Below are positions 1 through 58,096 of a DNA stretch of 64,000 nucleotides, piece after piece. The first letter of the stretch is position 1; each line of letters starts with the position of its first letter. A program made the translations under genes and the position numbers. The notes under the pieces are model-generated. The model saw only the letters and a list, made by a program, of their open reading frames with translations, did no database searches and was not told where the DNA came from. The stretch is taken from the NCBI RefSeq assembly GCF_039555335.1, contig NC_092646.1, positions 58,138,946-58,202,945 of the forward strand. The letters run 5' to 3'. Source of the stretch: Amphiura filiformis. Lineage: Eukaryota.

Positions 1-1378
1 GCATTTGTCTCGCATCAGTGGTCAATGCAATCAAATTTCATGAACCTGCGACAATCTATGGCGATTTGACCCCGGAAGACCCCAAAATTACCTTGACATT
101 TTTTGTCTTGCATAGTTGGTCGTTCTCACCAAATTTCATGAACCTGTGACAATCTATAGCAATTTGACTCCGGATGACCCCAACATGACCATGGCATTTT
201 GGGTCTCGCATCAGTGGGCAATGCCACCAAATTTCATGAACCTACGACAATATATGGCGATTTGACCCGGATGACCCGGATGGCCCCATAATGACCTTGG
301 CATTTTTAGTCTCGTATCTGTGGTCGATCGCACCAAATTTCATGAACCTGCAACAATTTATGGCAATTTGACCCCAGATGACTCCAAAATAATCTTGGCA
401 TTTTTTGGTCTCACATCACTGGTGAATGCCACCAAATTTCATTAACCTGTTACAATCTATAGCAATTTGACTCCAGATGACCTCAAAATTACCTTGGCAT
501 TTTGGGTCTCGCATCAAAATGGTCAATCCCACCAAATGTCATAAACCTACGACAATCTATGGTGATTTGACCCCGGATGACCCCAACATGACCTTGATAT
601 TTTTATCTTGCATTGTTGATCGTTCTCACCAAATTTCATGAACCTGCGAGAACAAAATGGCGTTTTGACCTCGGATAAATCCGAATGACCCAAAAATGAT
701 CTTAGCAATTTTGGTCTTGTATCGGCGATCAATCCCACCAAATTTCATGAACCTGCGACAAGCTATGGCGATTGGCCCCCGGATGACCCCGTATGGCCCC
801 AAAATGACCTTGATATTTTTATCTTGCATTGTTGATCGTTCTCACCAAATTTCATGAACCTGCGAGAACAAAATGGCGTTTTGACCTCGGATAAATCCGA
901 ATGACCCAAAAATGATCTTAGCAATTTTGGTCTTGTATCGGCGATCAATCCCACCAAATTTCATGAACCTGCGACAAGCTATGGCGATTGGCCCCGTTTG
1001 ACCCCGTATGGCCCCAAAATGACCTTGATATTTTTATCTTGCATTGTTGATCGTTCTCACCAAATTTCATGAACCTGCGAGAACATAATGGCGTTTTGAC
1101 CTCGGATAAATCCGAATGGCCCAAAAATGATCTTAGCAATTTTGGTCTTGTATCGGCGATCAATCCCACCAAATTTCATGAACCTGCGACAAGCTATGGC
1201 GATTGGCCCCCGGATGACCCCGTATGGCCCCAAAATGACCTTGACATTTTTGACTTGCATCGTTGGTCGTTCTCACCAAATGTCATAAACCTACGACAAT
1301 CTATGGCGATATGACCCCAAAATGATCTCGACATTTTTTGTCTGGCATCGTTGGTCGTTCCCACCAAATTTCATGTGT
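1..1378. repeat. Tandem satellite array with ~108-110-bp monomers (core caccaaatttcatgaacctgcgacaatctatggcgatttgacccc), organised at ~600-1260 as a 216-bp higher-order repeat of two alternating monomer subtypes. It decays into unique sequence near 1380.
   Basis: The monomer core recurs every ~108 bp from position 30 onward. Three near-identical 216-bp units start at ~733, 950 and 1164. Near-identical ORF-track peptides at 547-1260 are translations of this repeat. Confidence 0.9.
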
Positions 1379-2844: not shown

Positions 2845-3010
2845 AAAGCCTCCAGCATACTTTCCTGCCGCTTGCCGCTGCGGCAAGCAGCAGGGCGTTT
2901 CAACCAATGACAAGCCTTTATTGTGTCCGTTTGTCTGTAATGCGCGTGTGCCACGCCGCTCAGCGGCAAGCGGCAGGGTAGTATGAAACCAGCATAAGTT
3001 AAGACCTGAT
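2845..3010. repeat. Dispersed repeat segment (ggcaagcagcagg...agtatgaaaccagc[a/g]taagt) with a second copy at 60185-60335.
   Basis: Shared ~60-bp block between 2950-3000 and 60270-60330. The copy carries an internal palindrome gccgctgcggcaagc. Confidence 0.5.
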
Positions 3011-3084
3011 TCGTTGAATCGGTCATGAAATTATCCGAAATCCCAAGAAAGGTGCAAATTCAAAAGGTGCAGTTTGCTCCATTT

Positions 3085-3356
3085 AGCTTGAAATTCCCCT
3101 GTACAAGGAACTTACTGCAAATTGTCTCGTGGTAACCCGTACGAAACTCGAGGAGCTGATCCTGGCTGCGAAGGTCTATTGTGGAATGTCTAGGGTGTGC
3201 GCTTCTTAGCTGCAAGTCCTTGTATTGTTGTTTAATTGTTAATGGTATGATGTGGGGCCGTAGTGGTCAACGACCACCTGTAAAGTGTGCTGAGGCTTGT
3301 GGATCAACGTCTAGGAGTTGTGCCTGTGTGTAGCGCACTATAAATCACTGCGCTTT
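3085..3356 (+). repeat. Copy 1 of a ~270-bp dispersed repeat that forms the body of a SINE-like element. It is 5' truncated, with no tRNA-like head and no microsatellite tail.
   Basis: About 85% identity to 6046-6330. Both copies begin agcttgaaattcccctg and end tagcgcactataaatcactgcgcttt. Confidence 0.7.
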
Positions 3357-4810
3357 TTGGTGTATTCTCGAACAAGAGAACGAGCGCCGTGCTTTCCATT
3401 AATAACAACACTGGTGTAACTTTTCAATTGATCATTCCTTGGGTTTTCGATCACCGTTTCTTTAATCGATTTCAACAAATGAGGTCTTAAATCCGACCTA
3501 AAAGGTACAGGTCGTGGCTGCTGGTGATATATTTGTCTTTGTTTAGGATAAACAGGGGTGAACATAACTGGTACCTTAATTATTTTGCGGTCTGTATTTC
3601 GTATTTGCACCCATTGACGGTTTTCCCAGGCGGTGGCGGATGCGATATCGCCATTTTGACGTCGCCATTGGATTAACACATAATCATGAAATCTTCACAA
3701 ACAATTCTAAATTTGGTGTGTCAAGGCAAAATTATCTTACTCTAAAACCGTTGGGGTACGACAAAGTACCCCCACTGTAAATATGTTGTTTTTCAATTTA
3801 TAACTGCTAACCGTCTATTTTGAATGGGGCTGTCAGCCTTGTATTTTCGCCAGCCTCTAACGTCACGTGTCCCGTGTCCTATACCGCCTGGGTTTTCCTC
3901 TCTCCCTAGATCGCCACGTGTCAGATAATCTGATAGTTGATCAATTCCGTCCCTGCAATTTTAGTTTAAAAATCACAGATTTGTGCAGGATATGTAATTA
4001 TGCAAATTTGGTTGAGAGCTAGTTGCAGCGATTGGTCAAATATTTATTTGGATATTGGTAGAGTGATGAGTACCGCCTCCTCCCGGGCTCTGGACACTGG
4101 ATAGTCAAAAGCCTATATCAACTGGAATTGTTTCCTCGATGTTTTACAAATCCTGTCAACGGTCCTACAAACAACACGTTAACAAGCAGGTGCTCTGTTC
4201 GTATTTCGCGTAGAACGGCAAATCGGAACTTTTTGCATTAATAGTCAACGTTGAAGTTAGAACGTAATTAGCATGGTAAGTGTTATAACTTATTTGATTT
4301 CTTTGCCCTATTATTGCGTTTTTAGTTGAAATTAATTCTTTGCCAGACGTATCATTGCTTCTATAGAAGACTGTATTTTATAGATAAATCGTAACCAAGT
4401 TTGATGATGTATTTTGTCACCCAAGTAGCAGTAGCAGCAGTAGTATTATTTCAACCGGTGTTCATAGGATACAGGGGCCGTCGCTGTGGTGAATGGGGTT
4501 GTGGACAATGCTAGATATTGATCACGTTTACGGAAGAAACAAATTTTTATTCATGTTGATTTGAAATCATTTTGAAGCAACCACTGTACTTGGGAAAATA
4601 CTAAAATTTGAAAATGATATATTAAATCCTTAAAAACTATCAACTTCGACCGACGCGATGTTTTAACTACTTTTTTACAAACGTAATCGGACTTTTTGAC
4701 CCCCTCCCTCCCTAAACGAAAGGACTTTCGTTTGAATAGGAATTCATCGAACTTTTGGGTTATTCCATTTCGCAGTTTCTGTGGTGTGAATAATTTTCCT
4801 TTTATATTCC

Positions 4811-4974: not shown

Positions 4975-5943
4975 GTAAGTAGCGCAGATTTCTTTTCAAA
5001 ATTGGGGGCGACGGTGGTGTAAAAACCACGAAGCAGTCTTTCGCTCTCAGAATAACTTGTGGTGGAATTATTAAAATCAATTTTGAATTCAACATTAGAA
5101 GAAAAACAAAACAAAAAGGCGATTCCTAACCACTGGACACGTGAAAAGAAGCCCTGAAATCTTAGATACATAATATATCGTAGCCGTGTGCGAAGAAGGT
5201 TGGAAATCAGAGCTATAGTGGAGTTAACTTAAAGCCATATTATAACATTTCCTGAGGAAGACGCCCTCACGGAATTTTTAAAATTCCTTTTTTGTCACGA
5301 TTAAATTGTACTTTATTAAACCAATATACCCTGCAAAAATGAAGACTCTAGGTGCTGTAGTTTTGTCAAAATCCGAGATTTTTAATAAAACGCCGGAACC
5401 GGCGCTTTATTATTACGATGGAATTATTAGTCGAACGCATACACGGTGTTCATAACACACAGTGCGTACACGGCGTGTGCGACGGTGATATACACAACAA
5501 AGGGTCGTACCACAACATGACCGAAGGAGTGGTACGTATTGGCGACATGTGCGCTGGTAGTAAATTCCAATTTTCTTTGCTTTGCCGTAGTTGTTCGGCT
5601 CAAAAATAAAAGGGGATATATCTGACAGTAAAAGCTAACATTTTATGGCAAAGAAATGCTAATCTATTTTGTTTGAAAATGTTATAATATGGCTTTAACT
5701 TCAACGGATTTAGATCCCCTGTGCCCAGAGCTCGGGTACCGCGGTTTTCGGATGGGAGCGATTCTCATTCTGAAATGAGTTGATATTGAAGTATACATTT
5801 CCAAAAGGGGCTTCTACAGCCCATGATGTGTCACGACTATGCATGCATGTATATCGAGGGTTGAGAGCCAGAAAAGAGTTAAGATATTACAGATATCAGG
5901 TCCAAAAAGACTTTAGCAAGTCTACACTGAGACCAGCATAGAC

Positions 5944-6355
5944 TAGTAGTAAAGTTAGCTCAATCGTTAAGGCGTTCGACTATCATAGTGCGAGAGGTTG
6001 CGGGTTCGAACCCTTGCGGTGCCTAGTATGCTCTCGTGGAAAAATTGAGTAAGCTTGAAATTCCCCTGGACAAGGAACTTACTGCTAATTTTTCTCGTTG
6101 TAACCCGTACGAAACACGGGGAGCTGATCCTGGTTGCGATGGTTATTTGTGGAATGTCTAGGGTGTGCGCTCTTGAAGCAGCAAAGTCTCTGATTTGTTG
6201 TTTAATGGTTTATGGAATGATGTGGGGCCGTATATGGTCAGCGACAACCTGTAAAGTGTGCTGAGGCTTGTGGATCAACGTCTAGGCGTTGTTGTGCCTG
6301 TGCGTAGCGCACTATAAATCACTGCGCTTTATTATTATTATTATTATTATTATTT
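5944..6355 (+). mobile_element. SINE-like element. It has a degenerate tRNA-derived head (5944-6030, with T-arm-like ggttgcgggttcgaaccc), the ~290-bp body shared with 3085-3356, and an (att)8 tail at 6331-6354.
   Basis: tRNA-like D- and T-arm motifs are present but no clean cloverleaf. The body matches copy 1. The microsatellite tail is typical of SINE 3' ends. Confidence 0.55.
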
Positions 6356-6406
6356 TCCACAAAAGATATCTTGCTCCTTACAAGTCTTATTTTGGACTTG
6401 TTTCAG

Positions 6407-6701
6407 TCCGCCTTTTTGGTCTTTCAAGTGGTACCAAATACGGCGAAGTGGAAGTATACTACAATGGAGCTTGGGGTGCAGTGTGTGCTGACAACTGGGA
6501 TAAAAACGATGCAACTGTAGCATGTCGTCAACTTGGATTCTTTCCAGCGCCATTTGTGAGTTCTTATGGACAAGTAACTGGACCATTATCGATGACCAAT
6601 GTAATGTGTACTGGTACAGAAAAAAGTTTAGATGAATGCAGTCATGAAGGTGAACCTCAAACCTGTGCGTCAGCACGCCATGCATATATAGATTGCAATT
6701 A
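6407..6701 (+). CDS. Single-exon SRCR (scavenger receptor cysteine-rich) domain. The peptide is (I/V)RLFGLSSGTKYGEVEVYYNGAWGAVCADNWDKNDATVACRQLGFFPAPFVSSYGQVTGPLSMTNVMCTGTEKSLDECSHEGEPQTCASARHAYIDCN.
   Basis: The acceptor is tttggacttgtttcag|TC at 6401-6406 and the donor is TTA|GTAAGT at 6702-6707. The peptide has the canonical SRCR pattern (VRL..G, VEV..NG.WG.VC.D.WD..DA.VVCRQLG, C.G.E.SL..C). Entry phase is 1 and exit phase is 2. Confidence 0.85.
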
Positions 6702-8940: not shown

Positions 8941-9198
8941 CTATTCGCCGTAGAAGCGATGATGTATCAGGATTAACTACCATAGCAATAGGTTCAAACA
9001 ATTTTTGAACATATCGCACTGCACTAGTACGTACATGCGGTACCTCTGCATTGGAACCATAGATGTCAAATAACAGGGATAAAGTACAAATGTGATGAGT
9101 GCAACCTGCTTGTAGTGCAGGGCGATATATTCAAAAATTGTATTTATCTATTGCTATGGTAGTTAATCCGATTATTACGTACCTTCAACGGTGAATAG
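8941..9198. mobile_element. Fold-back MITE, family C, copy 2.
   Basis: Arms ctattcgccgtagaagcgatgatgtatcaggattaactaccatagcaatagg and cctattgctatggtagttaatccgattattacgtaccttcaacggtgaatag. Confidence 0.75.
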
Positions 9199-12764: not shown

Positions 12765-14297
12765 CAGTCATGGACAAAAGTTTGGAATATTTTTATTTTT
12801 TTTATCAAATGCAGTTTTCAATCATTGTTCTGGAGTAGTGCTCAGTTGAATTAATTTGAAAGTTATGAATGTCATTTGATGTTTACATCACACAGTTTGT
12901 CAATTAAACAAAGAATTTCCTGAGGAAGCGCATTACAATGGAAGGATCACACAATCGCAACACTTTTTGGCGGTCTCTTTGTATCACAAAATGAAATTAA
13001 AGACAATATAAAACTTTATTGTTTAAACAAAAACTTCCACTGTCTCTGTAATTTGTTCCGGTAAGTCTCTTGCTTGAGAAAACACATCTCAATATTTGGT
13101 GTGTCCACCCCTTGTCAGCTCAAGATCATTTAGCCAACGTGACATTCCCTCGTCCAGGTTTGCCAAGGTCCCTTGTGGAATATCTCGCCAGCAAGCAATA
13201 AAGGCGTGTCTACGTTCCTGCAGGGTGATTGGTTGGTTGTCCATGTTACCTATCCTGCGGGATACTTCTGCCCATAAGTTCTCTATTGGACTCATATCCG
13301 GGCTCAAAGCCGAGCAGTCCAGATGTTCTACATTCTCATTTTCAAGGAATTCCCTCACGCGTAGGGTTCTGTGCGCCATGGTGTTGGATCACGAAATTGT
13401 TCCCGAAGTCTCTTCTTGCAAACGGAAGCATAACTGTATCAAGAACATAGAGGTATTGGTTCTGGTTCACGTGTCCTTCTAGCATGTTGAGTTGTGATTT
13501 CGACCTACTCTGAAATGTTCCCCATACTGTGACTCCACCACCATCTCCCTGGACTCTAGGAAGGATACAATCCGCAAGCAGGGCTTGACCAACCTGTCTT
13601 CGGACCTTGAATCGGTCATCTTGTCTGTAAAGGAGGAACCGGGCCTCTTCACTGAAGATCACATTACGTCAGTGGCCTACTGTCAAATCCCTATGTCTCT
13701 GTGACCAAAGCAAGCGCGCATGCCGATGTCTTTGCAGAAGTATCGGCTTTCTTATTGGTCGTTTTGCGCGAAAACCTGCACTAACCAGTCTATTGTTCAC
13801 AAGTTTCCTGGTAACAGGAGCTTTTATGGACCTCAGCCATTCTGTTCGTAGCCGACTTGCCGACTCCGTGCGGCCATTGTGGCAAAGTCTCAGGAGAGAT
13901 CGGTCTTCCCTGGCGGTTGTCTTTCGGGGCCGACCTGACCTTGGTCTAGGTGTAGTAGTTCCGGTCTCGTGACGTCTCTTCAAAATTTTAGAGACTGCAT
14001 CTTATGTAATTCCTAAAGCGACACCTATATCCTTCTGTTTGTAGCCGCGATTACGTAAGTCGGTGACTTTGGCGCATAAATAATTATGTGCTCGACTCGT
14101 ACCTATGATCAGAAATATCGTATACAACAGACAGATGCAACAAAATAAAGCTGCACTAGGTATTGTGTGATATGGAATGATACCTTAGCAGACACCCGTG
14201 ATCCATTTTGCATGTCTTATGGGTCATTGATGGTAAGAAATCTGCACTTAAAAACAGGGTTATGCAAAAAAATATTCCAAGCTTTTGTCCATGACTG
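12765..14297 (-). mobile_element. Tc1/mariner-family (Tc1-like) DNA transposon, 1533 bp. It has 25-bp TIRs (cagtcatggacaaaagtttggaata / tattccaagcttttgtccatgactg) and is flanked by TA on both sides.
   Basis: TIRs at 12765-12789 and 14273-14297. TA dinucleotides at 12763-64 and 14298-99. Transposase-homologous ORF fragments lie internally on the minus strand. Confidence 0.85.
13089..13983 (-). pseudogene. Tc1-like transposase remnant. The N-terminal HTH region (RSGRPRKTTAREDR...), the DDE catalytic region (...VWGTFQ...FVIQHHGAQNP...) and the C-terminus fall in three different frames, so the gene is disrupted by frameshifts.
   Basis: ORF-track pieces 13669-13983, 13342-13662 and 13089-13379 each match successive parts of the Tc1 / Sleeping Beauty-type transposase pattern. 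Confidence 0.8.
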
Positions 14298-16806: not shown

Positions 16807-17018
16807 ATAAAGGATAGTTCTCACCTTCTATGATGCTTCGTTATCTACCAGTATATCAATTTTTCACAACAAGCGCCCAAAAGCACCCAAATTTGCCTTA
16901 ATGTGGTGCTTTTAAGGCACTTTTGCCCAAATTTGTTTTTGCACTTTTGCCCCGGACTTTTACCACATAGGAGTGTAAATTTCAAATGGGGCTTCCTAAT
17001 TAGCGACAACACTTGAAA

Positions 17019-17100
17019 TCTACACCCCTATGTGTGAAATTTAGGTCATGTCTTCCATAGGGGGTGTATGGATGTCAACTGAAATAACCCATTTGAACTG
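17019..17100. mobile_element. Fragment of the family-D palindromic MITE (the ccatacaccccctatggaagacatgacc family).
   Basis: tgtcttccatagggggtgtatggatgtcaactgaaata matches the family consensus. Confidence 0.5.
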
Positions 17101-19123: not shown

Positions 19124-19250
19124 AGACCCATTCAGTGATTTGCTCATCCGTACGATCGTAAAAATCATCAAAATTCACCTTTGTCATTGTCATAGATGTG
19201 GTAACATAGCCTGCTAGTGGTTCAGCAGAAAACCGTGTGACACATAATAT
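19124..19250 (+). mobile_element. 5' fragment of the TTAA-type non-autonomous element seen complete at 50479-51147.
   Basis: agacccattcagtgatttgctcatccgtacgatcgtaaaaatcatcaaaattca...catagatgtggtaacatagcctgctagtggttc is ~90% identical to 50481-50590. Confidence 0.5.
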
Positions 19251-19570: not shown

Positions 19571-19870
19571 ATACGCTGGCGAAGTTACGTAATAATCGGA
19601 TTAACTACCATAGCAATAGGTGAAAACAATTTTTGAATATACCGCGTTATACACTGATACGTTCAGGCGGTACCTCTTCATTGAACCATATCATGCTGCA
19701 CCTGTAAGATCTTTGAAAAGACCAGTATTGTATTCAATCTATGATTGCAGACATACACAGTACAGGTGATGAGTGTAACCTGCTTGCAGCGCAGCGCGAT
19801 ATGTTCAAAATTATTTTCACCTATTGCTATGGTAATTAATCCGATTAATTACGCAACTTCACCAGCGTAT
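19571..19870. mobile_element. Fold-back MITE, family C, copy 3.
   Basis: Arms tacgctggcgaagttacgtaataatcggattaactaccatagcaataggtgaaaacaatttttgaatat and the reverse complement. Confidence 0.75.
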
Positions 19871-25386: not shown

Positions 25387-28346
25387 TTATAGTTTTCTCA
25401 TTACCATCCTTAAATTTGACGACCCAAATCAATGTATTTCCGGAGATACCAAGGAAAAAAAATGATGGTTTTTTGTATAATTAATGTTTTGATTATTTAA
25501 TGTACAATTATAATTATATGTTATAAGGTGGTACATCGTTTTCAGGCCTCTTGGCCTTGTGATGTGCCTGCCTTCATCAATACTTGTTAATGTGCAATAA
25601 TTTAATTTACCTCTGTTGTTACATTGTATGCTTTATGAGATTGATGAAAAATAAAAGATTGATTGAATGGTATACCACTTTTTGATTCTGGGTAGGAAAG
25701 AATGAATCCGTGAATTTGGTCCGTTTTACTCCCATAGCGTTCGATTGCGATCAGTTATACTCCGCATGAAATATAGGTCCAAAATAATACTCTCTTTAGA
25801 CCCCCCCCCACACACCCCAATATTGGGTAAAATTTGAAAGATGAAAAGAAAGTAGTAGGAAAAATTTAATTAAAAAAAAAAAACTCATGTCACGGAAGGA
25901 CGGTCGATGATCAGTGAGGGGTGCGTTAGCGAACTCAAAAGTAGTACGAGCGTACAGAAAAGAGAGTTCTCGCGTACGCCAGTTGAGTGCTCGCTCAGAT
26001 GAGGGATGCCGCCAGACCCGAACGCTGTACCGGCGTCATCAGCTGAATTCATACACCCTAGAGGGCACCGGGCACATATAGGGAATATTCCAATCTATGT
26101 ATTTATTAATGTATGGTTAAACTAACCAACTAACGCACCCACCAACGCCTCGGCACTTCGCGCCTGAATGAGTTCGGCCTCGACCCGCATGTGAAAAATC
26201 TTCCTGCCTATATGATTTTAAGTGACCAAGAGGAGGAGGGGTAGCTCCCCCTGTCTTACCCCGATACACTTTTTACGAAAAAGGCGCATAGTGGCGTATC
26301 TTGATTACGTGATCCCAGTAACGCCCCTATGGGATACACTTCTTCGTAAAAAGTGTATCACATAGTGGCGTATCGTGACGCCACTATGTGATGCCTACAT
26401 CAGTGGAAACTTTATGATAGAGACATTGCGATTTCCAAACGTAGACATCGGACGTACGTTGATCTATTCAAAACCACTCTCCTGTATCGAAGCGAGGTCA
26501 CGTATTTAGCTATTTTGGAAGATATTCCACGTGCGAAGTCGACGTAGATACATCGTTGAAAATGCACAAAATTTGTCCATTTCACAATATGTTAAAGACA
26601 GTCAAAGATAATGAACATATGAAGGAAAGTCTAATTATTATTATGATCCTTTTTGTTTGTAACAAATCATTATAATAAAGGTACAGCGATGTGTTAAAAA
26701 TGGATTTATTTTAAACGCAATATTCACACGCAGAGATTGCCCATTGAAATGTGTGTGATACTTTGCGTTGGAAAATGACATTGCGGTTTCCCATTTTGGA
26801 TTCCAACGTAGAATAAAAACGCAGATGGTACGTTGAAATATGCTGATTTGACCTCATGTTTAAGTCCATGCAACGCGCCCAATTTTCAGGACGAAAAAGT
26901 CTCATTTTAAAAGTAAAGTCATGATGTATGTATGTAGTGATCTTTAATCTACCAAAATATATGTTTTTGGGCAACTATAATATTTGTGGAGCACAAAAAA
27001 ACAATTAGGTTTAATCAGCATGTAGGTCAAAATTTTAATCAAAATCAAAAGCGGTCTGTTTGAATTTAGGCAGAGACTCAGCTCACTGTTATTTTTTCAA
27101 TCACTATGCCCTCTATCGACCTAGGTTAGAAGCTGTTAGATTAGATCAAATATAATAGTCTTTATTCTCATCTAGCTGTCTTGTTCTCCTTCGTGACGAA
27201 TGAGCACAATCCAGTCTGGAACCGAGACTAGCAATATTTAACATCGTATTAACGTACGCAAAAACGTACGCGAAAACGTACGTTCCACGTGCTGCGTTTG
27301 GAAAATCGCAATTATGCTGTCAGTTGTTTAATTCTTCATCCCGATACAGCAAACCAGTATAAGTTTAATGACTAATTAAAATTAATTTTCATATGCATTC
27401 ACCAACTGTTCCTAGCCGAGTATCTTCAGTAGCCAGAGCAGGCACATCAGCTAGCCATATCCTTTACTATGTCTTGTTCTCATTGGGTTAGTGGTGATTC
27501 CACCTTAGCCTTCTGCTCATCCATATTGTTGCAAACCTTTCTATGGAGTGGTTTAAACAATAGGCGCTAAAACAGCTGACCACAAAACGCGTATTTGGCT
27601 TCGATACGTAGACGACGCCTTTCTTGTTATTGAAGCGAATGAAGCGCAGCAGTTAACAGACAATATCACGTTTTTTAAACAGACATACACTAAAGCAAAG
27701 CATGAAGAAGTCCTAAGATACTTCAAGAACACACCTCAAAACAAATCATTTTCTGACATACTGCGCACAACAAATTCCTTCTCGTCTGGTTTCGTACGAA
27801 GCGTCGGGAAGTATTTAACTCTCTTCACGCGGGTGTCGACTGCAGACGACATGTTTCAAATTTTTTTTTTTAAATCAAAAATTTCAAAAATGTAAATTTT
27901 CATGACCATATTTGGAATCAGCTTGAAAAATGCATTAAAATGAGTACAAATAAGCCTAGTATTGGTTCAGTAGTTCTTAAGATAGCTCTTGATATTTTGA
28001 GAAAACATTTCAAAACTTTTTTTCCGTTGAAGCGCATGGCTAGCAAGCAGAGCATTAAAAAGAAGCAAAATTACCATAATGACTACATCAAGTTTACTAA
28101 TAACTAATTACAAATGGGGGTTAGGCGGTTTTTGCCCAAAGCAATTGGGATCATTGACAGATAATAAAAAGCGCAGTGATTTATTTTTTTTTGATAGATA
28201 ACTTTTCAGGAAAAAATATGCACCGTGCGCACAAGAATTTGCAATTTGCAATCTAAAATAGGTTAAACTTGTTCTTTTATGGATCAAATGGACATTTAAT
28301 TTACTGAAAAAGTATATGAGAGCTAAATATCCTTTAAATTTTTCAG

Positions 28347-28454
28347 ATGAATGTGAATCCAACCCTTGTCAAAATGGTGGTTTTTGTATAGATGGTGTCA
28401 GCCAGTATAACTGTATCTGCCGAAGTGGATTTTCTGGAACAAGATGCATGACAA
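28347..28454 (+). CDS. Calcium-binding EGF-like domain exon of 108 bp in phase 1-1, encoding (D)[35 protein letters not shown].
   Basis: Acceptor tttaaatttttcag|AT and donor ACAA|GTAAGT. The peptide has the cbEGF signature D-x-D/N-E-C, six Cys and the Asn/Tyr hydroxylation context. The symmetric phase 1 is classical for EGF modules. Confidence 0.85.
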
Positions 28455-28483
28455 GTAAGTACACGCTCATTGCTTTACGGCAT

Positions 28484-28760
28484 GGGGGGAGCGTGGCCTA
28501 GCGGTTATGGCGTTGGATTGTGAATCAAGAGTTCGAATCCCAGGTACGCCTGAGCTTGGCTGGCTCTTTGTGTCCTTGAGCAAGGCACTTCACTCTACTT
28601 GCTTAGTGCTTCGGAAGGCACTTTAAACTGTCGGTCCCGTGTACATGCATATTTTCTCACATTAATGTAGTGTGCACGTTAAAGAACGTCACAGGCTATT
28701 CGAAAAGAGCAGGGGATCATCCCGGTACTGTTGATTGTACTTCAAAAATACACTCATCTA
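28484..28760 (+). mobile_element. tRNA-derived SINE inserted 30 bp downstream of the EGF exon donor.
   Basis: Head gggggagcgtggcctagcggttatggcgttggattgtgaatcaagagttcgaatccc, with D- and T-arm-like motifs, followed by a ~200-bp body. A related minus-strand copy lies at 17895-18195. Confidence 0.5.
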
Positions 28761-28996: not shown

Positions 28997-29404
28997 CTAA
29001 CGACGGAAAGCGGGAAAATCAACGTTCATTCCTGCAGGCGTAAGTGTTCCTGAATTGAAAATTAGCTGCTGTTCATCTTTGCGGCGACTTGCCGTATTAC
29101 CGTGGCATTTTTTGAGTCCAGTAATTTGCATGTCTTCCTGGCTGTGACCATTCGTTGAAAAATGTTTAGCAACTGGTTTGGTGATGTCCCCTCTGTTGGT
29201 ATCTCTGAGATGTTCCCGAAAACGTTCTGATATCATTCGTCCAGTTTCACCGATGTACACTGAAGCGCATTTTCGACATGTAATGGCATATATGCAGTCC
29301 TTAGTGGTGCAAGTGAAGTCATCCTTGATGTTAAAGTTATCTTTGGGACCGTAGGTTCCAGAGCAAAAAATAAGTACAGCTTGTCTGTACGCAGTGTGAT
29401 AATA
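28997..29404 (-). pseudogene. C-terminal fragment of a Penelope-like retroelement ORF, covering the GIY-YIG endonuclease domain. The peptide is ...GPKDNFNIKDDFTCTTKDCIYAITCRKCASVYIGETGRMISERFREHLRDTNRG...PVAKHF..GHS.EDM...GLKK*. It is truncated upstream by the fold-back insertion at 29411.
   Basis: The minus-strand frame is open from 29404 to the stop at 28997. The pattern C-x-(V/I)Y-x-I-x-C-x-x-C-x-x-x-YIG(E/Q)TGR-x-L-x-x-R-x-x-EH is characteristic of PLE EN domains. The ORF-track entry 28997-29260 starts at a GTG codon and is a partial view. Confidence 0.6.
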
Positions 29405-29410
29405 CTCATA

Positions 29411-29764
29411 TCGTTATGAATACGGCAGACGGCCGAATCCAGATTCGACTTTTGGTAAATTCATTTTACACATGCATTACATTTGAATTCGAGAACAAGG
29501 GATCAATGCTATATCTATAGAGGGCAGCATATCGATTTTTTAACGGTTGCCGTCGGTGACCGTACTGTGATGCACCGTCAACTAACCTTGTATGCCGCCC
29601 TCTTTTGATTACTTATCATCTGGTCTCCGTTAAAAAAATGATATGCTGCCCTCTATCATGTACAGCATGGATCCCTTGTTCTCTAATTCAAATGTAATGC
29701 ATTCGTAAAATAAATTTACCAAAAGACGAATCCGGATTCGGCCGTCTGCCATATTCATAACGAA
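29411..29764. mobile_element. Fold-back element, ~350 bp, with ~95-bp inverted arms (cgttatgaatacggcagacggccgaatccagattcgac...gagaacaagggatc) and an inner palindrome (agagggcagcatatcgattttttaa...).
   Basis: Direct reading. The left arm at 29411-29505 pairs with the right arm at 29668-29764. Confidence 0.75.
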
Positions 29765-30237: not shown

Positions 30238-30578
30238 AAAGGAGTATTTCGTGATCCTAGCATCCTCTTTTTATGACATTTTTCAGTAGATACCCACGAA
30301 AAAGCTTATTTTCAAAATTTCAGTTGATTCCGATTTTGCGTTTGCGAGTTATGCATGATTATGTGTATTACACTGCTCCATAGACAATGTGTTGTAATTT
30401 CGTTCTGGTGCAGAACGAAATTCAAATTTGGCGATATTTTTTGCTAAACGAATTAATCTGCAAGGAATATTTGGTACATAAACATTATGTAGCCAGAGGT
30501 ATCCAGTGGTGTAAAAATCTCAACTTTTTTTGGAAAAGTGGGGAGATGAGGCTGTGGATCACGAAATGCCCCTTTAAG
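30238..30578. mobile_element. MITE, family F, copy 1, with TIRs aaaggagtatttcgtgatcc.agcatcctc / gaggctgtggatcacgaaatgcccctttaa.
   Basis: Copies at 53219-53557 (full) and 34243-34426 (partial) share more than 85% identity. Confidence 0.7.
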
Positions 30579-32503: not shown

Positions 32504-32632
32504 ATTTTTCAGATATAGATGAATGTGCTTCTGGTCCTTGTCTAAATGGTGGTAGATGTAGAGATGGTGTCAACCACTATAGCTGTATCTGTCCAAGTGG
32601 ATTTGCTGGAACAAGATGCTCTGTGGAACACG
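32504..32632 (+). CDS. Second calcium-binding EGF-like domain exon of 129 bp in phase 1-1, encoding (D)[39 protein letters not shown].
   Basis: Acceptor cctttaatttttcag|AT and donor ACACG|GTAATG. The exon is ~80% identical in nucleotide sequence to the 28347 exon. The 30 bp upstream of both acceptors (tatatga[g/c]agctaaatatccttta) is conserved, indicating tandem duplication of the exon unit. Confidence 0.85.
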
Positions 32633-32757
32633 GTAATGAGACAAGCGCATTATTGAAGACGAGAAAATAATAAATAATAATAATTTTTAAAAAAACACAC
32701 GGAAAAATAGCCAAAATAGCCTCATATACCAAATGGAACCGATTTACGCTCATTATA

Positions 32758-32891
<134 letters not shown>

Positions 32892-33233
32892 CACTTTAAA
32901 AAAATCTATATGAATGGAAACTTAATAATATGCTATAAAGTTGAATAACATGTGGAACAAGAATCGCAAAACCTATATAAATATAAATAGAAACAAATTC
33001 AAAGTATAGACCTCTGGCAAGGCAACCGTTACTTAAAGTTTCACGGAATACCCTCACTTACGATCATTAAACCGATCATCAGGCGGATAATTTGTCATGA
33101 TTTCAAATTTACAGAAATGTTTATACAAGTATATACATTCTGTGGTGTCGAAAACATGACAAACCATGCCAACCAGAACAGTCTCTACTCCAAAAGTAGT
33201 CGAGAGTGCTCAACCACTAAAAATAGTGGGGGC

Positions 33234-34057: not shown

Positions 34058-34242
34058 GGGTACTGGTGGTGACTGTAATCTGAGATTACATATAGATTAA
34101 CCGGTGACTGCACTCCAGGGGTAGGGCGTACTTTAGCAACAAGTCAAGAGCGGCGCTACTATATCAAGAGCGGTACTACGAGCTACTATACGTTTGGCAA
34201 GCATATGGAAAGATATAGCTACAAAACGATTCTCTTATAAAC

Positions 34243-34426
34243 GTTCTGGTGCACCAGAACGAAATTCAAATTTCACGATATCTTTGCTAAACGAATTAAT
34301 CTGCAAGAAATATTTTGTACATAAACATTATGTAGCCAGAGGTTGCCAGTGATATAAAAATCTCAACTTTTTTTGAGAAAAGTGGGGAGATGAGGCTGTG
34401 GATCACGAAATGCCCCTTTAAATGAA
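34243..34426. mobile_element. MITE, family F, partial copy (right half).
   Basis: About 88% identity to 30395-30578. Confidence 0.6.
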
Positions 34427-35275: not shown

Positions 35276-35419
35276 GTCAACATACAGCATTTAGTGTAAT
35301 AAATAACAGGTGTTGGCCAGACTGTGGTCCTTTTCTCCATGTCTCATTTTGGGCCGGTGCAAGTAAATTAGTCCACTCGTGGCCTGAGTACTTATGTGCA
35401 TGACTTTATATTATTGCAG

Positions 35420-35671
35420 ATCTTGAAATCTGGAAATGTGATGATATATTCAGGACGTCTTCAACAGAATATGTAAGAGTATTTTTCCTTCGCGGACGCC
35501 AAGCACAAAATAACGTAGGTGCTAGTGGGGGATATCACAGGGAATTCAATCCACCATCGGGCAGCATCTTCAAAGCTGGGACAATAACATCCGTCCGATT
35601 TACAGTTACCGATGAAAACACAGTCAATATTTCGTGTACATTCAAAGTGCAAGTCCAACACGACCAAAGAG
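35420..35671 (+). CDS. Candidate internal coding exon of 252 bp in phase 1-1, with an open frame of 84 codons: (D)LEIWKCDDIFRTSSTEYVRVFFLRGRQAQNNVGASGGYHREFNPPSGSIFKAGTITSVRFTVTDENTVNISCTFKVQVQHDQR.
   Basis: Acceptor tttatattattgcag|AT and donor AGAG|GTAGTC. There is no stop in 84 codons of AT-rich sequence and no ATG, so the frame is absent from the ORF track. Phase 1 at both ends is compatible with the upstream EGF exon and the downstream 36966 exon. An alternative short exon would end at the GTAAGA at 35473. Confidence 0.5.
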
Positions 35672-36965
35672 GTAGTCTACTTTATATCTTATAATACAAA
35701 ATGCACACATCAAAGAAAGAGTAAATGTAAAGCATAATTATATTGCAGTGGGAGAGGTGTAAAATTGTACTGCATTGAAAACCCCCCATAAAAATCGTAC
35801 ATTATGGCTGCAAGGCTGACAGAGTACTATTTTCTAAATTCAAAACTTTTAAGTTTAAAACCTATCATGTTATATACCATTATTTAATCATTCGTATCTA
35901 AAGTATTTCAGAGTTTATTATAGTATGCAAACGGTATGCTTATTTACAGCAGGTCTCATTTTCTTAGCATATATAAAGCACCCGGTTAAAGTATTTACTA
36001 CTATTTCATTAGGACTGAGGAAGAAAGTGGACTTTTAGGTTCAAAAGATTTTAAAAAAAAACCAACACGATACGTGATAAAACATGATACTAAATTCGTA
36101 ACTTCATAATATGGATCTAAGGATAGAAAATGAGTGCTTCTGAGTCGAGAAGACCAAAAGTCGGCATTTTCCTTTTTAACGTATGCTTGCATGTTCGTTT
36201 TTTGCTTGATACCATCTTATATTCCCTCCAATAATTCGACAATACCTTTCTCAAATAGCTAGATCAAATTGTCCAAGTGCAATGTTGGTAATTCTAATCA
36301 GAGATTAATACGGTATCATGCAATTGAATACATGAATACAAAAGCCACCTAAGTCCATGCGAAGTTATTTTGAGAGAAAAACCCGTGTATCATTTTAATT
36401 CCTTCAGTTAGATTTACCTGGTCAATATGGTAAGTTTTACATGCAAATGAGTGGATTAACCTGTATTAGGTATGACGATTAGCATTTCAGGGACTTCGTG
36501 GGGTTCATTTTAAATTTTGGACTTTTTTGGTTTTTTGAATCATATACAAAGACAACAATGTTAGAATGAGATTACCACTAGTAAGATAATACAAAATAAA
36601 GCACACAGGTATGTATAATGTAGATAAGCATTCTGCCATGTAATATAAACCACACACTTTCCTTTATTAAACCCATTTTTTGTTCAAAAGTCATTCTCTA
36701 GCAATGAATGTGTTACAAGTGGACTTTTATACATACTGGATTTCAATCAATGTGTTACAAGACTCAAATCATGGAATTGGGTGATTCTTTCATACATGCT
36801 ATTTTTCACATGCCCAATAGACACAGAGAATGAATTTGAGTTGTTCTTTCATGCATATGACAGGCCTATGTATAGCAACAATTTCCCATGCTTAACTCAA
36901 TTTGGCCAAAGTATGGACTTAGGTGGCTTTTGTATTCATATATTCAATTGTTACATTTTTTACAG

Positions 36966-37323
36966 CATGTCACGTTGGACCCGAAATACCACCGAAAGAC
37001 GAATTTCCGTGGGCAGGCCTTACGCCACCTTACGGCTATAAGGGGATTCGAGGTGGATACGTTTACATTTTAGCAGCAGATTATTATACAATATATTGCA
37101 ATGGATCTGTATCTAGTTGGGACTATTTTGCAGAGACGTCCGCAGCTTTCCGAGCTATAGTATTTAGACCTGGTGGTAACCCGAAACAGTGGACCATTGT
37201 CGGTATCAATGACATTCCTCCTCATACAGCCAAATACCAGTATAAGTCTACATACGTTGTTCCGTACGGTGATCGCATATCGGTTGAAGCGGGTGACGTT
37301 ATCGGTGTCGCAGTCGGTGAAGC
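36966..37323 (+). CDS. 5' part of the terminal coding exon, entry phase 1: (A)CHVGPEIPPKDEFPWAGLTPPYGYKGIRGGYVYILAADYYTIYCNGSVSSWDYFAETSAAFRAIVFRPGGNPKQWTIVGINDIPPHTAKYQYKSTYVVPYGDRISVEAGDVIGVAVGEA. In the present sequence it ends after 3 extra codons at a TGA (37331-37333) supplied by the inserted MITE.
   Basis: Acceptor ttacattttttacag|CA at 36951-36965. The frame is open for 120 codons. The first-codon junction with exon 35420-35671 gives G+CA (Ala). The domain is not recognised and appears beta-rich. Confidence 0.6.
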
Positions 37324-37699
37324 CAGAGGATGATTTAAGCACTTCCCAGCAAGTCTTGCGGTTAGCACAGCTGTGTGAGTGAACATGACACCACTGCCCG
37401 CCCACTGCACACACACGTGCATGGTTAAATTTGAATTTGGATAGATATATTTACAATAAAAACACCTTCAAAAAGTTGGTCGATTTCACATTTTATGTTA
37501 TCTACAGAAGGTGTGAATTATCCTTCATGCATACATCACTTTACATCTGAAATCGACCAAGTAATAATGACACACGGGCAATTCTAAAACAACATCTTTT
37601 GCACAGAGTTCAATGGGATTTGAAAAGTAAAGTGGCAGTTGAAACTCTAGTGATAACACTTTTACAGTGCATGATGGGGCTTCCTTAAATCATCCTCTG
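37324..37699. mobile_element. MITE, family G, 376 bp, with 16-bp TIRs (cagaggatgatttaag / cttaaatcatcctctg) and a perfect 9-bp target-site duplication CGGTGAAGC (37315-37323 and 37700-37708). It is inserted inside the terminal coding exon.
   Basis: TIRs and TSD read directly. The second copy at 39519-39903 has its own perfect 9-bp TSD, ATATCCTCC. A 9-bp TSD suggests a Mutator/MULE- or Merlin-like origin. Confidence 0.85.
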
Positions 37700-37708
37700 C
37701 GGTGAAGC

Positions 37709-39518: not shown

Positions 39519-39903
39519 CAGAGGATGATTTAAGGAAGCCCCATCTTGCACTGTAAAAGTGTTATCACGCGAGTTTCAAATGCCACTTAACTTCTGAAAT
39601 CGCATTGAAGTCTGTGCAAAAGATGTTGTTTTAGAATTGCCCGTGTGTCATTATTACTTGGTCGATTTCAGATCTAAAGTGATGCATGCATGAAGGATAA
39701 TTCACACCTTCTGTAGATAACATAAAATGTGAAATCGACTGGCATTTTGAATGTGTTTTATTGTAAATATATCAGTCCAAATTCAAATTTAACCATACAC
39801 GTTTATGCAGTGGTCCCGGGCAGTGGTGTCATTTTCACTCACACAGCTGCTAACCGCAAGTTGACCCCAGTGGAGTGCTGGGAAGTGCTTAAATCATCCT
39901 CTG
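39519..39903. mobile_element. MITE, family G, copy 2, 385 bp, inverted relative to copy 1, with a perfect 9-bp TSD ATATCCTCC (39510-39518 and 39904-39912).
   Basis: TIRs cagaggatgatttaag at 39519 and cttaaatcatcctctg at 39888. The interior is ~85% identical to 37324-37699 in reverse complement. Confidence 0.85.
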
Positions 39904-39919
39904 ATATCCTCCCTTCCTG

Positions 39920-40255
39920 TATCATAGTTCCGAGGTCAGATACTTCAAGTCCAGGGTCCTGCTTCAGCTCATGTAAGGGACGGTATACCAGGGTCAGATA
40001 CTTCAAGTCCAGGGTCCTGCTTCAGCACATGTAAGGGACGGTATACCAGGAAATTCGTACATGAGAGTGACATATAAATAGAATGAAATAACCCAAATGT
40101 TATCTTTTAATGTGACATTAATTTTGTGTAAAACGGTTGTATGTTTAAAAACATTCAACCGTTTTAGACAAAATTAATGTCACAAAAAATAAATGGGTGT
40201 GATTCTATATATTTACGTGTCACTCTCACTTTCCTGTACGAATTTTCCTGGTATA
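39920..40255. repeat. Two tandem 55-bp units (ggtcagatacttcaagtccagggtcctgcttcagc.catgtaagggacggtataccag) followed by a ~220-bp hairpin at 40035-40255.
   Basis: Direct reading. aggaaattcgtacatgagagtgacatataaatag at 40035 pairs with ctatatatttacgtgtcactctcactttcctgtacgaattttcct at 40205. Confidence 0.65.
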
Positions 40256-48524: not shown

Positions 48525-50430
48525 AAATAAACTTCTCTTATCTTCCAAAAACTCACAAATGTTTTACTGATTTAATATTCCAAACACTTTGTGTTCTTTT
48601 CAAACTGAATAATCTATCTCAAGCTGAATATCTCAAACTGAATATTCTTTTATAAGCAAACACAGTAAAATTTATTATATACTACAAATTATTCTTCAAT
48701 TTGGAATCATGTTCAAACTTTTTTGTAAGACCACTTAACCATTTAACAATTTAAAAATACATCATAACACTATCTTTGTACTCAAAGTTTGTACTACTTC
48801 TTGTTGGCTCACATTATTCTCATACCCAAATACAGAAGTAAAACAACACATATGTGAGTGATTTGAATACCCTGGGTATGATGCAACATAATCATGATAT
48901 AAATGAAGTAAAACGCTTAAAATTAGACCAAAACCATACTTCTGTGTGCTTATACTCAGCACTCTATATTTTATTATTTTTGATTCAGTATTACCTGGTA
49001 ACCCACAATCCGATTCATCAACAGCCAGCACGTTTCTACTGATGCTTAAAATAAGGGTTGTGGTGTGTACTGCAAATGCTTTCTTTGCATAACCCCCAAC
49101 TGCTTTTAAGGTGTATGATGGGATACATAAAATGTACATAAATAAAAGAAAACACCCAGCAACCGTTAACCATTGTGTTTCTACTGGCATCACGGCTTGG
49201 GCTGCAAAGTGCCAACACCGTATCGCTCCAAACTGATGCGTTTCCACTGAGCACATTAACCGGTAACTAAACCACATCAGCCGCCAACCTTTCACCAGTA
49301 GAAACATGCAGCTTGTTTTCTGAAATACCATTATGCAGCAGCATAGGAGGCTTTAAAGTGTCAATATTGGTAGCATATCATGTGATATTTACTGCATATG
49401 GTGTTCTTTTTTACTGGTGGGTGGGGTGGGGAAGTCAACTCCTTAAACTGCCACCAACCCCCTCAGATGTATTTCCTGATATATTTCTTTATTCTACTAT
49501 TCTTTACTCTCCCAACACAGGGGGTGGGGAGATTTTGGTAGGGGTGTATGGCGCAGAGTGCCTAACTAAGAACTGATTTCGGGCAAAATAGGGGTTTGAG
49601 GAACTGAAATTATGGGCAAATTATAGGTTGTGGAGTCAAAAATTTCCCATTTTTTTCTTCAAATTTCAGCTTAAAGAGCTACAATTGTCAGAGTTTGTGG
49701 CTCAAAGATATTGTATGAAATGTTTTTTGTATAATCGGGTCAAAAATCATTACATTACCCAAGGACCAACAGGGTCTAACTTAAAGCTCACATCAGCTTA
49801 TGCATAATGTCACTTGCACCCTGGGTATGAGAATACCAGTCAACTGAAAATCACACACCTGTAGCGACTCTCTATAAAGTTTTCTTTCTTTTTATGTAAC
49901 ATATTTTACACTTTCAATGTACATTCATTTTAACTAAACACTGTCATATAAATAAGTTAATGGTTTTTTTTAGAAAACAACAATTATTTACATATATGCA
50001 ACATTTATGTAACATGTACATTGTCTTTATCTTAAATAATAAATAATACAGGTTTGCCTTAATATCTGGTAACAGTGTGTAAACTCAATAACCCTGACAA
50101 TTATTCATATTAAACTACATGTAGTTTTTACAACTCATTTCAGATAAAAGTGAATGCAAACTTACTATAAGTAATACTAGAAAACAATACTAGAAAACCA
50201 TAATAAAGCGTAAAACTGTATTATTTGAAAAAGAACATTATAAATATAAACGTTATTCACTTATGCAGACTACCCAATTACCAAATCTTCCTTAAGTTTT
50301 TAGCACAACTGATTAAAGTTTTTGAAACAAATTAACGAGTAAAAAATATATGAATATAATTATCAACTTCAATGTGTTACCCTATAGTCCATATTTGTTG
50401 GCACTATTATGCAATTCTAAACTTCTATTT

Positions 50431-51290
50431 GCCATTCTATTTGAAATCCATACATCCCTATGGAAGACATGGCCTTAAAGGCCCATTCAGTGATTTGCTC
50501 ATCCGGACGATCGTAAAAATCATCAAAATTCAGATTTTGGTACCTTTGTAATTGGCATAGATGTGCTAACATAGCCTGCTAGTGGTTCGATTCGAAAACC
50601 GTGTATTTTAGACAAAATAAAGCATTTGCATGATTCTGGACTTTTGATACTGACAGTACAAAAGTCCGACTCGAGATCGAAAGAAGCTCACTCTACACCG
50701 TACCAACACGCGTTGCGTATTGTTTCTACTACTTATTACATCAGTAGCTACTATTTTAAACAAAATACACAATTTTAACTGTTTTTCATATTTGAATTGA
50801 CCGTTAGTTTGCCTCGGTGACCTTTAATTGCTTACTTTGTTTTCTACTACAAAAATTAAGCGTCTGTTTTAAATCAATTTAGACTCTACTTCCCCGTGTT
50901 AGAAACACTGGACTAGGAAGTTTTTCCAGTCGATTAAGTGGCGCACTGTACGAAAATCTCGATCTTCACGAGTCGATCTGAGTTGAGGGAGAAAAACTTT
51001 CTAAAACTTCTGTTTTTGACTAATTTGTCGATGTATTCAGGGGAAAAGTGGTTTAATGAAATTCTGTAGACTTATTCTTTGTTTCTAAGCAACTCTGACA
51101 AATTTCCATTTTTTTTAATGTTCCTGTGAAATCACTGAAAGGGCCTTTAATCTTGCACACAGGGAGTGTAGATTTCAAACGGAGTCATCCATTCAGGTAA
51201 CCCAATTTGAAATTCACACTCCTGTGTATAAGATTCAGGTCATGTCTTCCATAGGGGTGTATGGATTTCAACAGGAATCGCCTATTCTAT
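50431..51290. mobile_element. Family-D MITE, copy D5, split into 50431-50478 and 51148-51290 by a nested insertion.
   Basis: The left part ends ...gacatggccTTAA and the right part resumes TTAAtcttgcacacagggagtgtagatttc. The intact family sequence has a single ttaa at this point. Confidence 0.75.
50479..51147. mobile_element. Non-autonomous DNA transposon of 669 bp with 19-bp TIRs (aggcccattcagtgatttc / gaaatcactgaaagggcct), flanked by a TTAA target-site duplication. This is compatible with the piggyBac superfamily or another TTAA-specific one.
   Basis: TIRs and TTAA flanks read directly. A homologous 5' fragment lies at 19124-19250. Confidence 0.7.
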
Positions 51291-52994
51291 GATCTAATGA
51301 TAGTACTGTAAAGCAGGATATTATAGTGAGATTTTTTTTGCAATTTTAACTTTTCTTAACAGTTTACGGTTCTAAACAGTTTAACTGTTCTAAACAGTAA
51401 ACAGTTACGGTGTCTATGATTCCCATTTTCAAACAGCTACGCATTAAACGTGCGAGTCCAGATATATTTTTGCTGGTTTTTGAATTAATGGTTCTAAAAT
51501 CATCGTAACCACTTGGGAAGCCCACCCTCTAGATAAGCAATTTTATTCCAAAACTGGGGGTGGATTTATAATTAGGGAGGAGCTAGTGCTTGAATTTAAA
51601 AACAATCTTCTTAATTTGCATAACAGTCTTACAGATCAGATGTACTGGAAATTTCAATCATCTGTCAATGTTTTTAAGTATGGAATGTCAATTTTTAACG
51701 GATATTTTTTACAGTTGTTCATAAACATGAGAGCAAAGCTATGATTTGATTAAAGAATTTGGGCAAAATCACTACTGGGCTTAAAAGCTATAAACCACTT
51801 GGCATGTGACGTCATTGCCCGGCAGTATGCGTGCGCATTATGACAATTTACATTGTTCTTTGCCCTGCATCATAGTCTGCTAAGGGCACGTGCATTTTAA
51901 ATCGCCCGCCACATTTCATACAGTACAAGAAAGCCATTGATCAGTGTAGTGGCTCGTTCGAGCATATCGCCTTTGTTGATAAACAGTGATGTCAAGTGGT
52001 CTATAGCCAAGTGCATTCTTTTTTTTCCAGATTGTCTTGAAAAATAGGGATGGGGTTATACCTGAATGTGGGCTAAAACCCGTGTGTTTACGGTAATCAT
52101 GAAAAACGCAAAAATAAACCTGCCTTATATACATCCCACTTTACAGTACATGTATGTCAGAAAAGATATCGAACCCTTCCCAGAATCCTTTGCAACATGA
52201 TGCATCACCTCATTACAGCAAATTCCACTAACTCCTATTACTTTGTACAGGTTCCCTTTGTTTTCATGCCGAGAATAGACTGGCTAAACATGGGTCGATA
52301 GTTTTGCAAGATCTTGATGTGCACTGTTCATGTGTTGCTATCGACCCATGTTAGAATGGAAGAAATACATTGTGGGAAGTGTAAGATATATTTTCTGACA
52401 GTGCATCAACTTAAATAAACTAACCTAATCATATCTTTGGCATTATTATGTAATTCTAAGCTTCTATGCTATACTAATTTGCCATAAAATCTATTCTAAA
52501 ATAAACCATTACATTGCTTGATTTCATATATTATACATACATGTATAAAGACTTATCAATATCAAATATGGAAATAAAATCAAACGATTGCTTCAATCAA
52601 AATTTATCTTCAAAAAAACTTCCAAATTCTCAAACTTGTTGCGCTATGACGGTCCTTGTAGCCTTTTCCATTCGTTTATACTGCAAGTCAAGTTACCTTG
52701 CTTGCATGTGGCTGTGGCTATTCTATTTAAATCCACTCTACCCTATGGAAAATGTCACCTTTCTTGAAACTAAATGGTCAACCCATGTGAATTATTTTGT
52801 GCGATTTATATCAAAAACTTAAAATTCACCTGAAAACAGTGCAAAACATTAAAATGCAGTTGAATTTAACTCAATTTGGGCCATGTTTAGGCAATTTTGT
52901 TTGATTTCCAACACTTTTTCCAGTCTTTGGATGCAAAGTGCTGAATCTGGAATGGCTCTAACTATTTATTTTGGTTGGAATTCAAAAATATTTC

Positions 52995-53218: not shown

Positions 53219-53557
53219 AAAGGAGTATTTCGTGATCCTTGCATCCTCTTTTTATGACATTTTTCAGTAGATATCCACGAAAAAAGCTTATTCCCAAAAT
53301 TTCAGTTGATCCCGATTTTGCGTTTGCGAGTTATGCATGATTATGTGTATTACACTGCTCCATAGACAATGTGTTGTAATTTCGTTCTGGTGCACCAGAA
53401 CGAAATTCAAATTTAGCGATATTTTTGCTCAACTAATTAATCTGCAAGAAATTTTGGTACATAAACATGTAGCCAGAGGTAGCCAGTGGTATAAAAATCT
53501 CAACTTTTTTTGAGAAATATGGGGGGATGAGGCTGTGGATCACGAAATGCCCTTTTA
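53219..53557. mobile_element. Family-F MITE, copy 2 (full length).
   Basis: About 88% identity to 30238-30578. Confidence 0.7.
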
Positions 53558-57739: not shown

Positions 57740-58096
57740 AAGGGGGTACTACACCCCTGCTCAATTTTTTGCCTATGTTTATGTTTTTCTCAAAAATTAT
57801 AGCGCATCGGTCATAAGTTAAGATATGTCTATTATAGGGGCAAGGACTACAACTACTGCACTGGAAATTGTATTTCAGCACAGACAACAGTTGTGGAGTT
57901 ACAGTCAAAAATGAGGGAACCCCCATATTTCATCAATAAATCAATAACTACTTGCCTTGAGTTGCTGAATTTTCAGTGCAGTATTTGTAGTCCTTGCCCC
58001 TATAATATAAATATCTAATTTGTTATCAATGCGCTATAATTTTTGAGAAAAATGCAAAAATAGGCACAAAATTGGCCAGGGGTGTAGTACCCCCTT
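57740..58096. mobile_element. MITE with 20-bp TIRs (aagggggtactacacccctg / caggggtgtagtaccccctt) and extensive internal self-complementarity.
   Basis: Direct reading. Confidence 0.8.

Follow-up and report, generated by a model that had tools for sequence, protein, structure and literature searches.

The window, i.e. the whole 64-kb stretch of DNA that was analysed, has a G+C content of 35–44% and resembles animal genomic DNA. It contains a copy of a repeat family, denoted family D, which extends from approximately 50430 to 51284 and is interrupted by a 668-bp segment, denoted family A (Table 1). The original prediction had recognized the interrupted family-D copy, albeit with the slightly different extent 50431–51290, and had given the insert one base too many (669 bp). 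The insert is flanked by TTAA on both sides, as had been claimed, and directly inside the two TTAAs lie terminal inverted repeats (TIRs) with arms of 18 nt, complementary at 17/18 positions; the 19th base of the arms is unpaired (G vs C). The TIR pair reported earlier is thus real, but not its length of 19 bp, since 18 nt pair, and the 19-bp string given for the left arm ended in a wrong letter. Across 50475–51150 the sequence reads ...CATGGCC-TTAA-AGGCCCATTCAGTGATTTGCTC ... GTGAAATCACTGAAAGGGCCT-TTAA-TCTTGCAC..., with the insert termini being 5'-AGGCCC...GGGCCT-3'.

Table 1 Coordinates of the interrupted family-D copy, its insert and other inverted-repeat elements in the window
Feature	Position	Strand	Remarks
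Insert (family A), non-autonomous DNA transposon	50479–51146	+	668 bp; boundaries from TIRs, target-site duplication and empty-site reconstruction
Left TTAA of target-site duplication	50475–50478	.	Read directly
Right TTAA of target-site duplication	51147–51150	.	Read directly
Left TIR of insert	50479–50496	+	AGGCCCATTCAGTGATTT
Right TIR of insert	51129–51146	-	Reverse complement AGGCCCTTTCAGTGATTT; 17/18 with left arm
Host family-D copy, left part	50430–50478	+	Ends in target TTAA; aligned with 5' arm of ten other copies; 87.5% identity to family-D consensus (BLAST)
Host family-D copy, right part	51151–51284	+	BLAST against family-D consensus; aligned with ten other copies
Family-A copy 2, truncated 5' fragment	19124–19238	+	Preceded by CTAA; terminus AGACCCATTCAGTGATTT
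Family B copy 1, MITE	30240–30573	+	334 bp, TTAA-flanked; TIRs AGGAGTATTTCGTGATCC / AGGGGCATTTCGTGATCC, related to family A
Family B copy 2, full-length	53221–53554	+	TTAA on both sides; 93% identical to copy 1
Family B copy 3, 3' fragment	34242–34417	+	Terminus abuts TTAA
TTAA-flanked TIR element	5233–5694		Starts AGCC; TIR AGCCATATTATAACATTT, 18/18; single-copy
TTAA-flanked TIR element	57742–58094		Starts GGGG; GGGGGTACTACACCCCTG; long, nearly palindromic; single-copy
TTAA-flanked TIR element	3003–3486		Starts GACC; GACCTGATTCGTTG; single-copy

The inverted repeat of the insert stands out from the background of the window. Allowing up to three mismatches (≤3), the TIR 18-mer occurs 3 times in 64 kb compared to an expected 0.08, and alignment of the left and right ends of family A gives a score of 31, where the null distribution has a mean of 17 and a maximum of 24. 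Shuffled windows contained 0–2 TTAA-flanked TIR pairs per 64 kb at 12/14 or better. A control scan over all 256 4-mer duplications was confounded by long inverted repeats and is not used as evidence.

No open reading frame longer than 59 aa and no tandem array was found within the insert, and an Rfam scan returned two weak matches, one of them outside the insert. These matches (SNORD82 and mir-3129) are meaningless, their 23 and 19.5 bits falling well short of the respective gathering scores (43 and 90). Lacking longer frames, tandem arrays and significant RNA-family matches, the insert is non-autonomous. It displays the generic features of MITEs and other non-autonomous class II elements, namely TIRs, a target-site duplication, a lack of coding capacity and a copy number above one. 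However, a length of 668 bp is near or above the usual upper size limit of MITEs, and non-autonomous element is consequently the safer term. A literature search with the TIR strings gave no match. The 23-mer at the 5' end of the insert had 0 exact matches in metagenome and prokaryote genome collections, where animal genomes are not expected, and this count has no bearing on copy number.

The empty site was reconstructed by joining 50431–50478 to 51151–51290, thereby deleting the insert together with one TTAA. This restores family-D sequence, as expected for the nested insertion that was originally proposed to have duplicated a TTAA of the MITE. The join reads ...GACATGGCCTTAATCTTGCACAC... and falls in a gap-free block of the alignment with ten other family-D copies, the consensus of which is GACCTTAATCT at this point, with a single CCTTAATCT at the target; the full CTTAAT is present in six of the ten and point variants are seen in the rest. 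The intact, uninterrupted form of the host copy can be written as ...GGCCTTAATCTTGC..., and BLAST places 51147–51282, TTAA included, at positions 49–185 of the family-D consensus with 90.5% identity. It had been suggested that a family-D consensus with additional sequence at the insertion point would undo the claim, but such sequence was found in 0/10 of the other copies from the window. The proposed order of events also stands: as the empty site is clean in the reconstruction, the MITE is older and the 668-bp element came later. The statement that the MITE has a single internal TTAA applies to the reconstructed copy but not to the consensus, which has a second, mirror-image TTAA (GATTAAGG). 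In the host copy this has mutated to GATTCAGG, leaving one TTAA only.

The 668 bp could formally be ancestral family-D sequence that was lost from the other copies, or an inverted repeat that arose by chance, and nothing beyond this formal possibility speaks for such an origin. The segment is missing from 10/10 of the other family-D copies, all with an uninterrupted CCTTAATCT; it carries TIRs of its own, matching at 17/18 positions and abutting a perfect direct repeat of TTAA; and its terminus recurs in an independent fragment at 19124, outside any family-D copy. The likelihood of this explanation is close to nil, and the ten-copy alignment effectively refutes it.

Family D itself (consensus TGGGCTATTCCAGTTGAAATCC...) measures ~187 bp, has long inverted arms and is represented in the window by ~14 copies or fragments, most of them tightly grouped in the final third at 42–63 kb (42438–62815), and also at 16963–17091. 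No consistent target-site duplication was readable in the flanks of these copies. Beyond the consensus, some of them have additional sequence in common (ACCAGTTCAAA). The metagenome and prokaryote genome collections, in which animal genomes are not expected, contained 0 exact matches to a 25-mer of the family-D core. A tandem repeat with an 18-bp unit (TTTAACTGTTCTAAACAG, 51345–51398, 3.1 copies) is found ~60 bp downstream of the interrupted copy.

The degraded homologue of the 5' end of the insert, previously placed at 19124–19250, was found to be real with a span of 19124–19238. Its alignment to the first 126 bases of the insert spans 126 columns, a 10-nt deletion included, and shows 85% identity and ~7% substitutions. 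No trace of the 3' part (the remaining 540 bp) was detected within ~4 kb on either side, local alignment scores being at the level of shuffled sequence. The family is consequently multi-copy, as stated earlier, with at least one further copy in the window in the form of this fragment; there are at least two copies in the window, and neither of the two is young. The expectation that other copies would likewise be flanked by TTAA was not borne out for this copy, which adjoins CTAA. In the sister family, family B, TTAA adjoins all five termini. A separate, hairpin-like repeat family is present at 8973–9166 and 19601–19839, with related ends near 20162 and 21225 and inverted arms containing ...GGATTAACTACCATAGCAATAGG...; one of its copies follows the truncated family-A fragment at a distance of 350 bp.

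The TIRs of families A and B have 12/18 identical positions, in register, and share a terminal motif consisting of TTAA followed directly by AGGNNNWTTYMGTGAT. The motif AGGNNNWTTYMGTGAT has 8 matches in the window compared to 0.76 expected, and 8/8 are termini of A or B, a count which is partly circular as the motif was built from A and B sequences, although it is still absent elsewhere in the window. TTAA adjoins 7/8 termini, beyond which the bases differ, and the remaining terminus adjoins CTAA. The termini of family B, AGGAG and AGGGG, represent the exact T2-MITE/Kolobok motif TTAAAGGRR, with TTAA at 5/5 termini. No significant similarity was found between the subterminal regions of A and B; the link is confined to the terminal 16–18 nt and was spotted post hoc.

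Three other clean TTAA-flanked TIR elements are present in the window (Table 1). The first two bases are purines in all three, and no C-first TTAA-flanked element was found in the window. These elements may belong to further non-autonomous families of a Kolobok-like type. The interior of the element at 3003–3486 (its positions 83–354) is repeated at 6052–6330 with 88% identity.

The assignment of the target requires some care. With a palindromic TTAA next to a TIR whose first base is A, the site allows a second parse, flank-T / TA / AAGGCCC...GGGCCTT / TA / A-flank, which yields the same empty site as the first. This formal ambiguity with a Tc1/mariner TA duplication, which arises for any TTAA flank next to an A-first TIR, was missed in the original prediction. 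The insert would then be a Stowaway-like Tc1/mariner MITE with the termini AAGG...CCTT that duplicated TA, at a target which happened to have T and A on its outer sides. The empty site would again be GGCCT-TA-ATCTT, the window does contain a Tc1-like element (~12765–14297), and the C-TA-A flank of the copy at 19124 fits TA and not TTAA, which is slightly in favour of TA. With TTAA at 2/3 termini, family A gives weak evidence, and the target is not decidable from this family by itself. Conversely, the outer base completes TTAA at 7/8 termini when A and B are combined, corresponding to p ~0.002 under the TA model (own calculation, ~32% T). As the outer base would be free under TA, TTAA is taken as the real target, an argument that leans on family B, whose tie to A is limited to the termini. 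Moreover, the TIR of the Tc1-like element in the window, CAGTCATGGACAAAAGTTTGG, is unrelated to that of the insert, and AAGG is not known as a common terminus of Tc1/mariner elements. A Tc1/mariner origin of the insert is thereby regarded as very improbable.

The Tc1-like element at 12765–14297 is degenerate; its TIRs are CAGTCATGGACAAAAGTTTGGAATATTTTT, and its minus-strand transposase is frameshifted, with a HTH_Tnp_Tc3_2 match at 13672–14001. Its unrelated TIRs rule it out as a partner of the insert. The protein closest to its transposase is 67% identical and is encoded on a 1.66-kb Logan contig (SRR12011312); the coding DNA of this contig is 71% and its TIRs ~96% identical to the element in the window, indicating a related Tc1 family.

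Kojima and Bao told Kolobok from piggyBac elements by their termini, the Kolobok signature being TTAA in combination with 5'-RR...YY-3' (PMC9587614). The Kolobok-related T2-MITEs of Xenopus combine TTAA with a terminal AGGRR, and the TIRs of full-length Xenopus Kolobok elements (XKol) start with AG or AGG (PMC6004289, Table 5). In a survey of 157 piggyBac-like elements, on the other hand, the first TIR residue was C, with the ends described as CCC/GGG or C[C/A/T][C/A/T], and the TIRs had a length of 12–19 bp (PMC5381638). The assignment of TTAA-flanked MITEs to piggyBac has similarly been based on a CC[C/T]T motif (PMC2872659). The insert has a 4-bp TTAA duplication that is perfect on both sides and corresponds to a single TTAA in the ten-copy empty site, and its ends show both the RR/YY pattern and AGG. 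The full AGGRR is seen only in family B, the corresponding bases of family A being AGGCC. In combination, these features suggest that the insert is probably a Kolobok-like, TTAA-specific, non-autonomous class II cut-and-paste element, analogous to the T2-MITEs of Xenopus. We infer the superfamily solely from the two terminal bases and the target specificity.

The original prediction had attributed the insert to piggyBac-type, or other TTAA-specific, transposition. As a non-autonomous member of the piggyBac superfamily, the insert would have been moved by a TTAA-targeting piggyBac-like transposase, and both the TTAA duplication and the 18-nt TIRs, inside the range of 12–19 bp, are in agreement with such an origin (PMC5381638). 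However, the AGG...CCT termini are at odds with the C-first, G-last ends of piggyBac (PMC5381638) as well as with the CC[C/T]T motif (PMC2872659), and it is the termini that separate Kolobok from piggyBac (PMC9587614). The piggyBac attribution is consequently not supported, while the hedge proved to be the better half of the claim, TTAA with RR...YY being Kolobok (PMC9587614) and TTAA with AGGRR being T2-MITEs (PMC6004289). The superfamily is the sole substantial correction to the earlier description.

Kolobok elements encode a DDE transposase with a C/DxxH signature, often in combination with THAP. Among the 146 open frames ≥71 aa in the 64-kb window, none had a THAP domain or PF13843 (DDE_Tnp_1_7, piggyBac), the latter representing the piggyBac-like transposase that was originally suggested as a partner. 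Within the window there is neither a PF13843 domain nor a C-first TTAA-flanked element, and we consider piggyBac a rather doubtful source of the insert. As Pfam lacks a model for the Kolobok transposase (PMC5751038), the same scan says nothing on a Kolobok partner.

The insert could also belong to another or an undescribed superfamily that generates 4-bp duplications with a preference for A/T-rich palindromes, e.g. a Sola group. The Sola groups have 4-bp target-site duplications with group-specific target preferences. The basis of the Kolobok assignment is termini and target, with no transposase partner seen in the window, and the AGGCC of family A departs from the T2 motif AGGRR; both points leave some room for such an origin. 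Still, the Kolobok signature of TTAA and RR...YY is matched exactly and provides the simplest fit (PMC9587614, PMC6004289), and the literature search found nothing tying Sola to TTAA. Another superfamily is therefore judged unlikely. Likewise, it is doubtful, albeit conceivable, that A and B, with their common TTAA and AGGNNNWTTYMGTGAT ends, were moved by an undescribed TTAA-specific transposase lineage. This could be a Kolobok clade that has diverged in a little-studied animal phylum, or a distinct superfamily with TTAA and purine termini acquired by convergence; such a lineage would, if real, be of modest interest.

Among known systems, the Xenopus T2-MITEs (e.g. Xmix / T2-A1, T2-C) are similar to the insert in their TTAA duplication, RR/YY termini and TTAA-AGG start, and also in being short and non-coding, with short TIRs and with several copies and related subfamilies per genome (PMC6004289, PMC9587614). 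They differ from family A in having AGGRR in place of AGGCC, whereas family B is an exact match, and the XKol TIRs show no likeness to the insert TIR beyond AGG (PMC6004289, Table 5). Moreover, the host here is an invertebrate-like animal genome rather than Xenopus, and the Kolobok likeness is one of termini and target. The piggyBac-derived MITEs, e.g. coral CMITEs, human MER85/MER75 and TTAA-specific MITEs of mosquitoes, share with the insert the TTAA duplication, TIRs of 12–19 bp and the lack of coding sequence, as well as the use of TTAA sites inside other repeats as targets (PMC2872659). Their ends are however CC[C/T]T...A[G/A]GG, as compared to AGG...CCT, and the window has no piggyBac transposase domain. 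Stowaway-like and other Tc1/mariner MITEs are likewise small, with TIRs and an A/T-rich target, and the empty site alone fits a TA duplication; they differ in that the outer T and A are kept at 7/8 A and B termini, and in that the insert TIR is unlike that of the Tc1-like element in the window.

By analogy with the known behaviour of DDE/DDD cut-and-paste transposases, the favoured Kolobok-like element would have been mobilized in trans by the transposase of an autonomous relative at another genomic location. The enzyme would bind both 18-nt TIRs and excise the element, which would then integrate at a TTAA inside the already resident family-D MITE via cuts staggered by four bases. Gap repair at the stagger would finally duplicate the TTAA.

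Repeat-rich animal genomes commonly contain small DNA transposons nested in older MITEs, and TTAA-specific MITEs of the Kolobok type are well known from the literature. The value of the locus is accordingly mostly one of annotation, as a clean and dated example of a nested insertion, and it bears on no open question. It does illustrate that TTAA flanks alone are no proof of piggyBac, the terminal dinucleotides in this case pointing to Kolobok. Families A and B can serve as seeds for two putative Kolobok-like non-autonomous repeat families in annotation; should an intact autonomous partner of the two survive, it would be a candidate for an active TTAA-specific transposase.

Several other features were observed in the window. 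Isolated open frames on the plus strand match SRCR (6286–6699, E 1.7e-23), EGF (28262–28498, E 2e-9) and HYR (35404–35691, E 2e-5) domains. These are probably exons of mosaic extracellular proteins, and they indicate an animal, invertebrate-like genome. The SRCR exon and the open frame at 36923–37333 had no match in a collection of 5.8 billion proteins. A GIY-YIG nuclease domain, as in Penelope-like retroelements, was detected in an open frame on the minus strand (29000–29413, E 4e-5) and represents a remnant; nearby, the plus-strand frame at 27557–27892 contains a YVDD-like motif and has no Pfam match. A large inverted duplication (~37070–37700 / 39530–40030) is centred near 38610, with arms of at least ~350 bp and several in-register TTAA pairs, and the peptide CWEVLKSSS is common to its open frames at 37073–37450 (minus strand) and 39726–40031 (plus strand). 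A long trinucleotide microsatellite at ~32600–32920 would be translated to poly-Tyr or poly-Val, depending on the strand. Finally, the minus-strand open frames at 629–841 and 1060–1272 (window 629–1311) have 93% protein identity, a repeat that indicates a local tandem duplication or a satellite with a period of ~430 bp.
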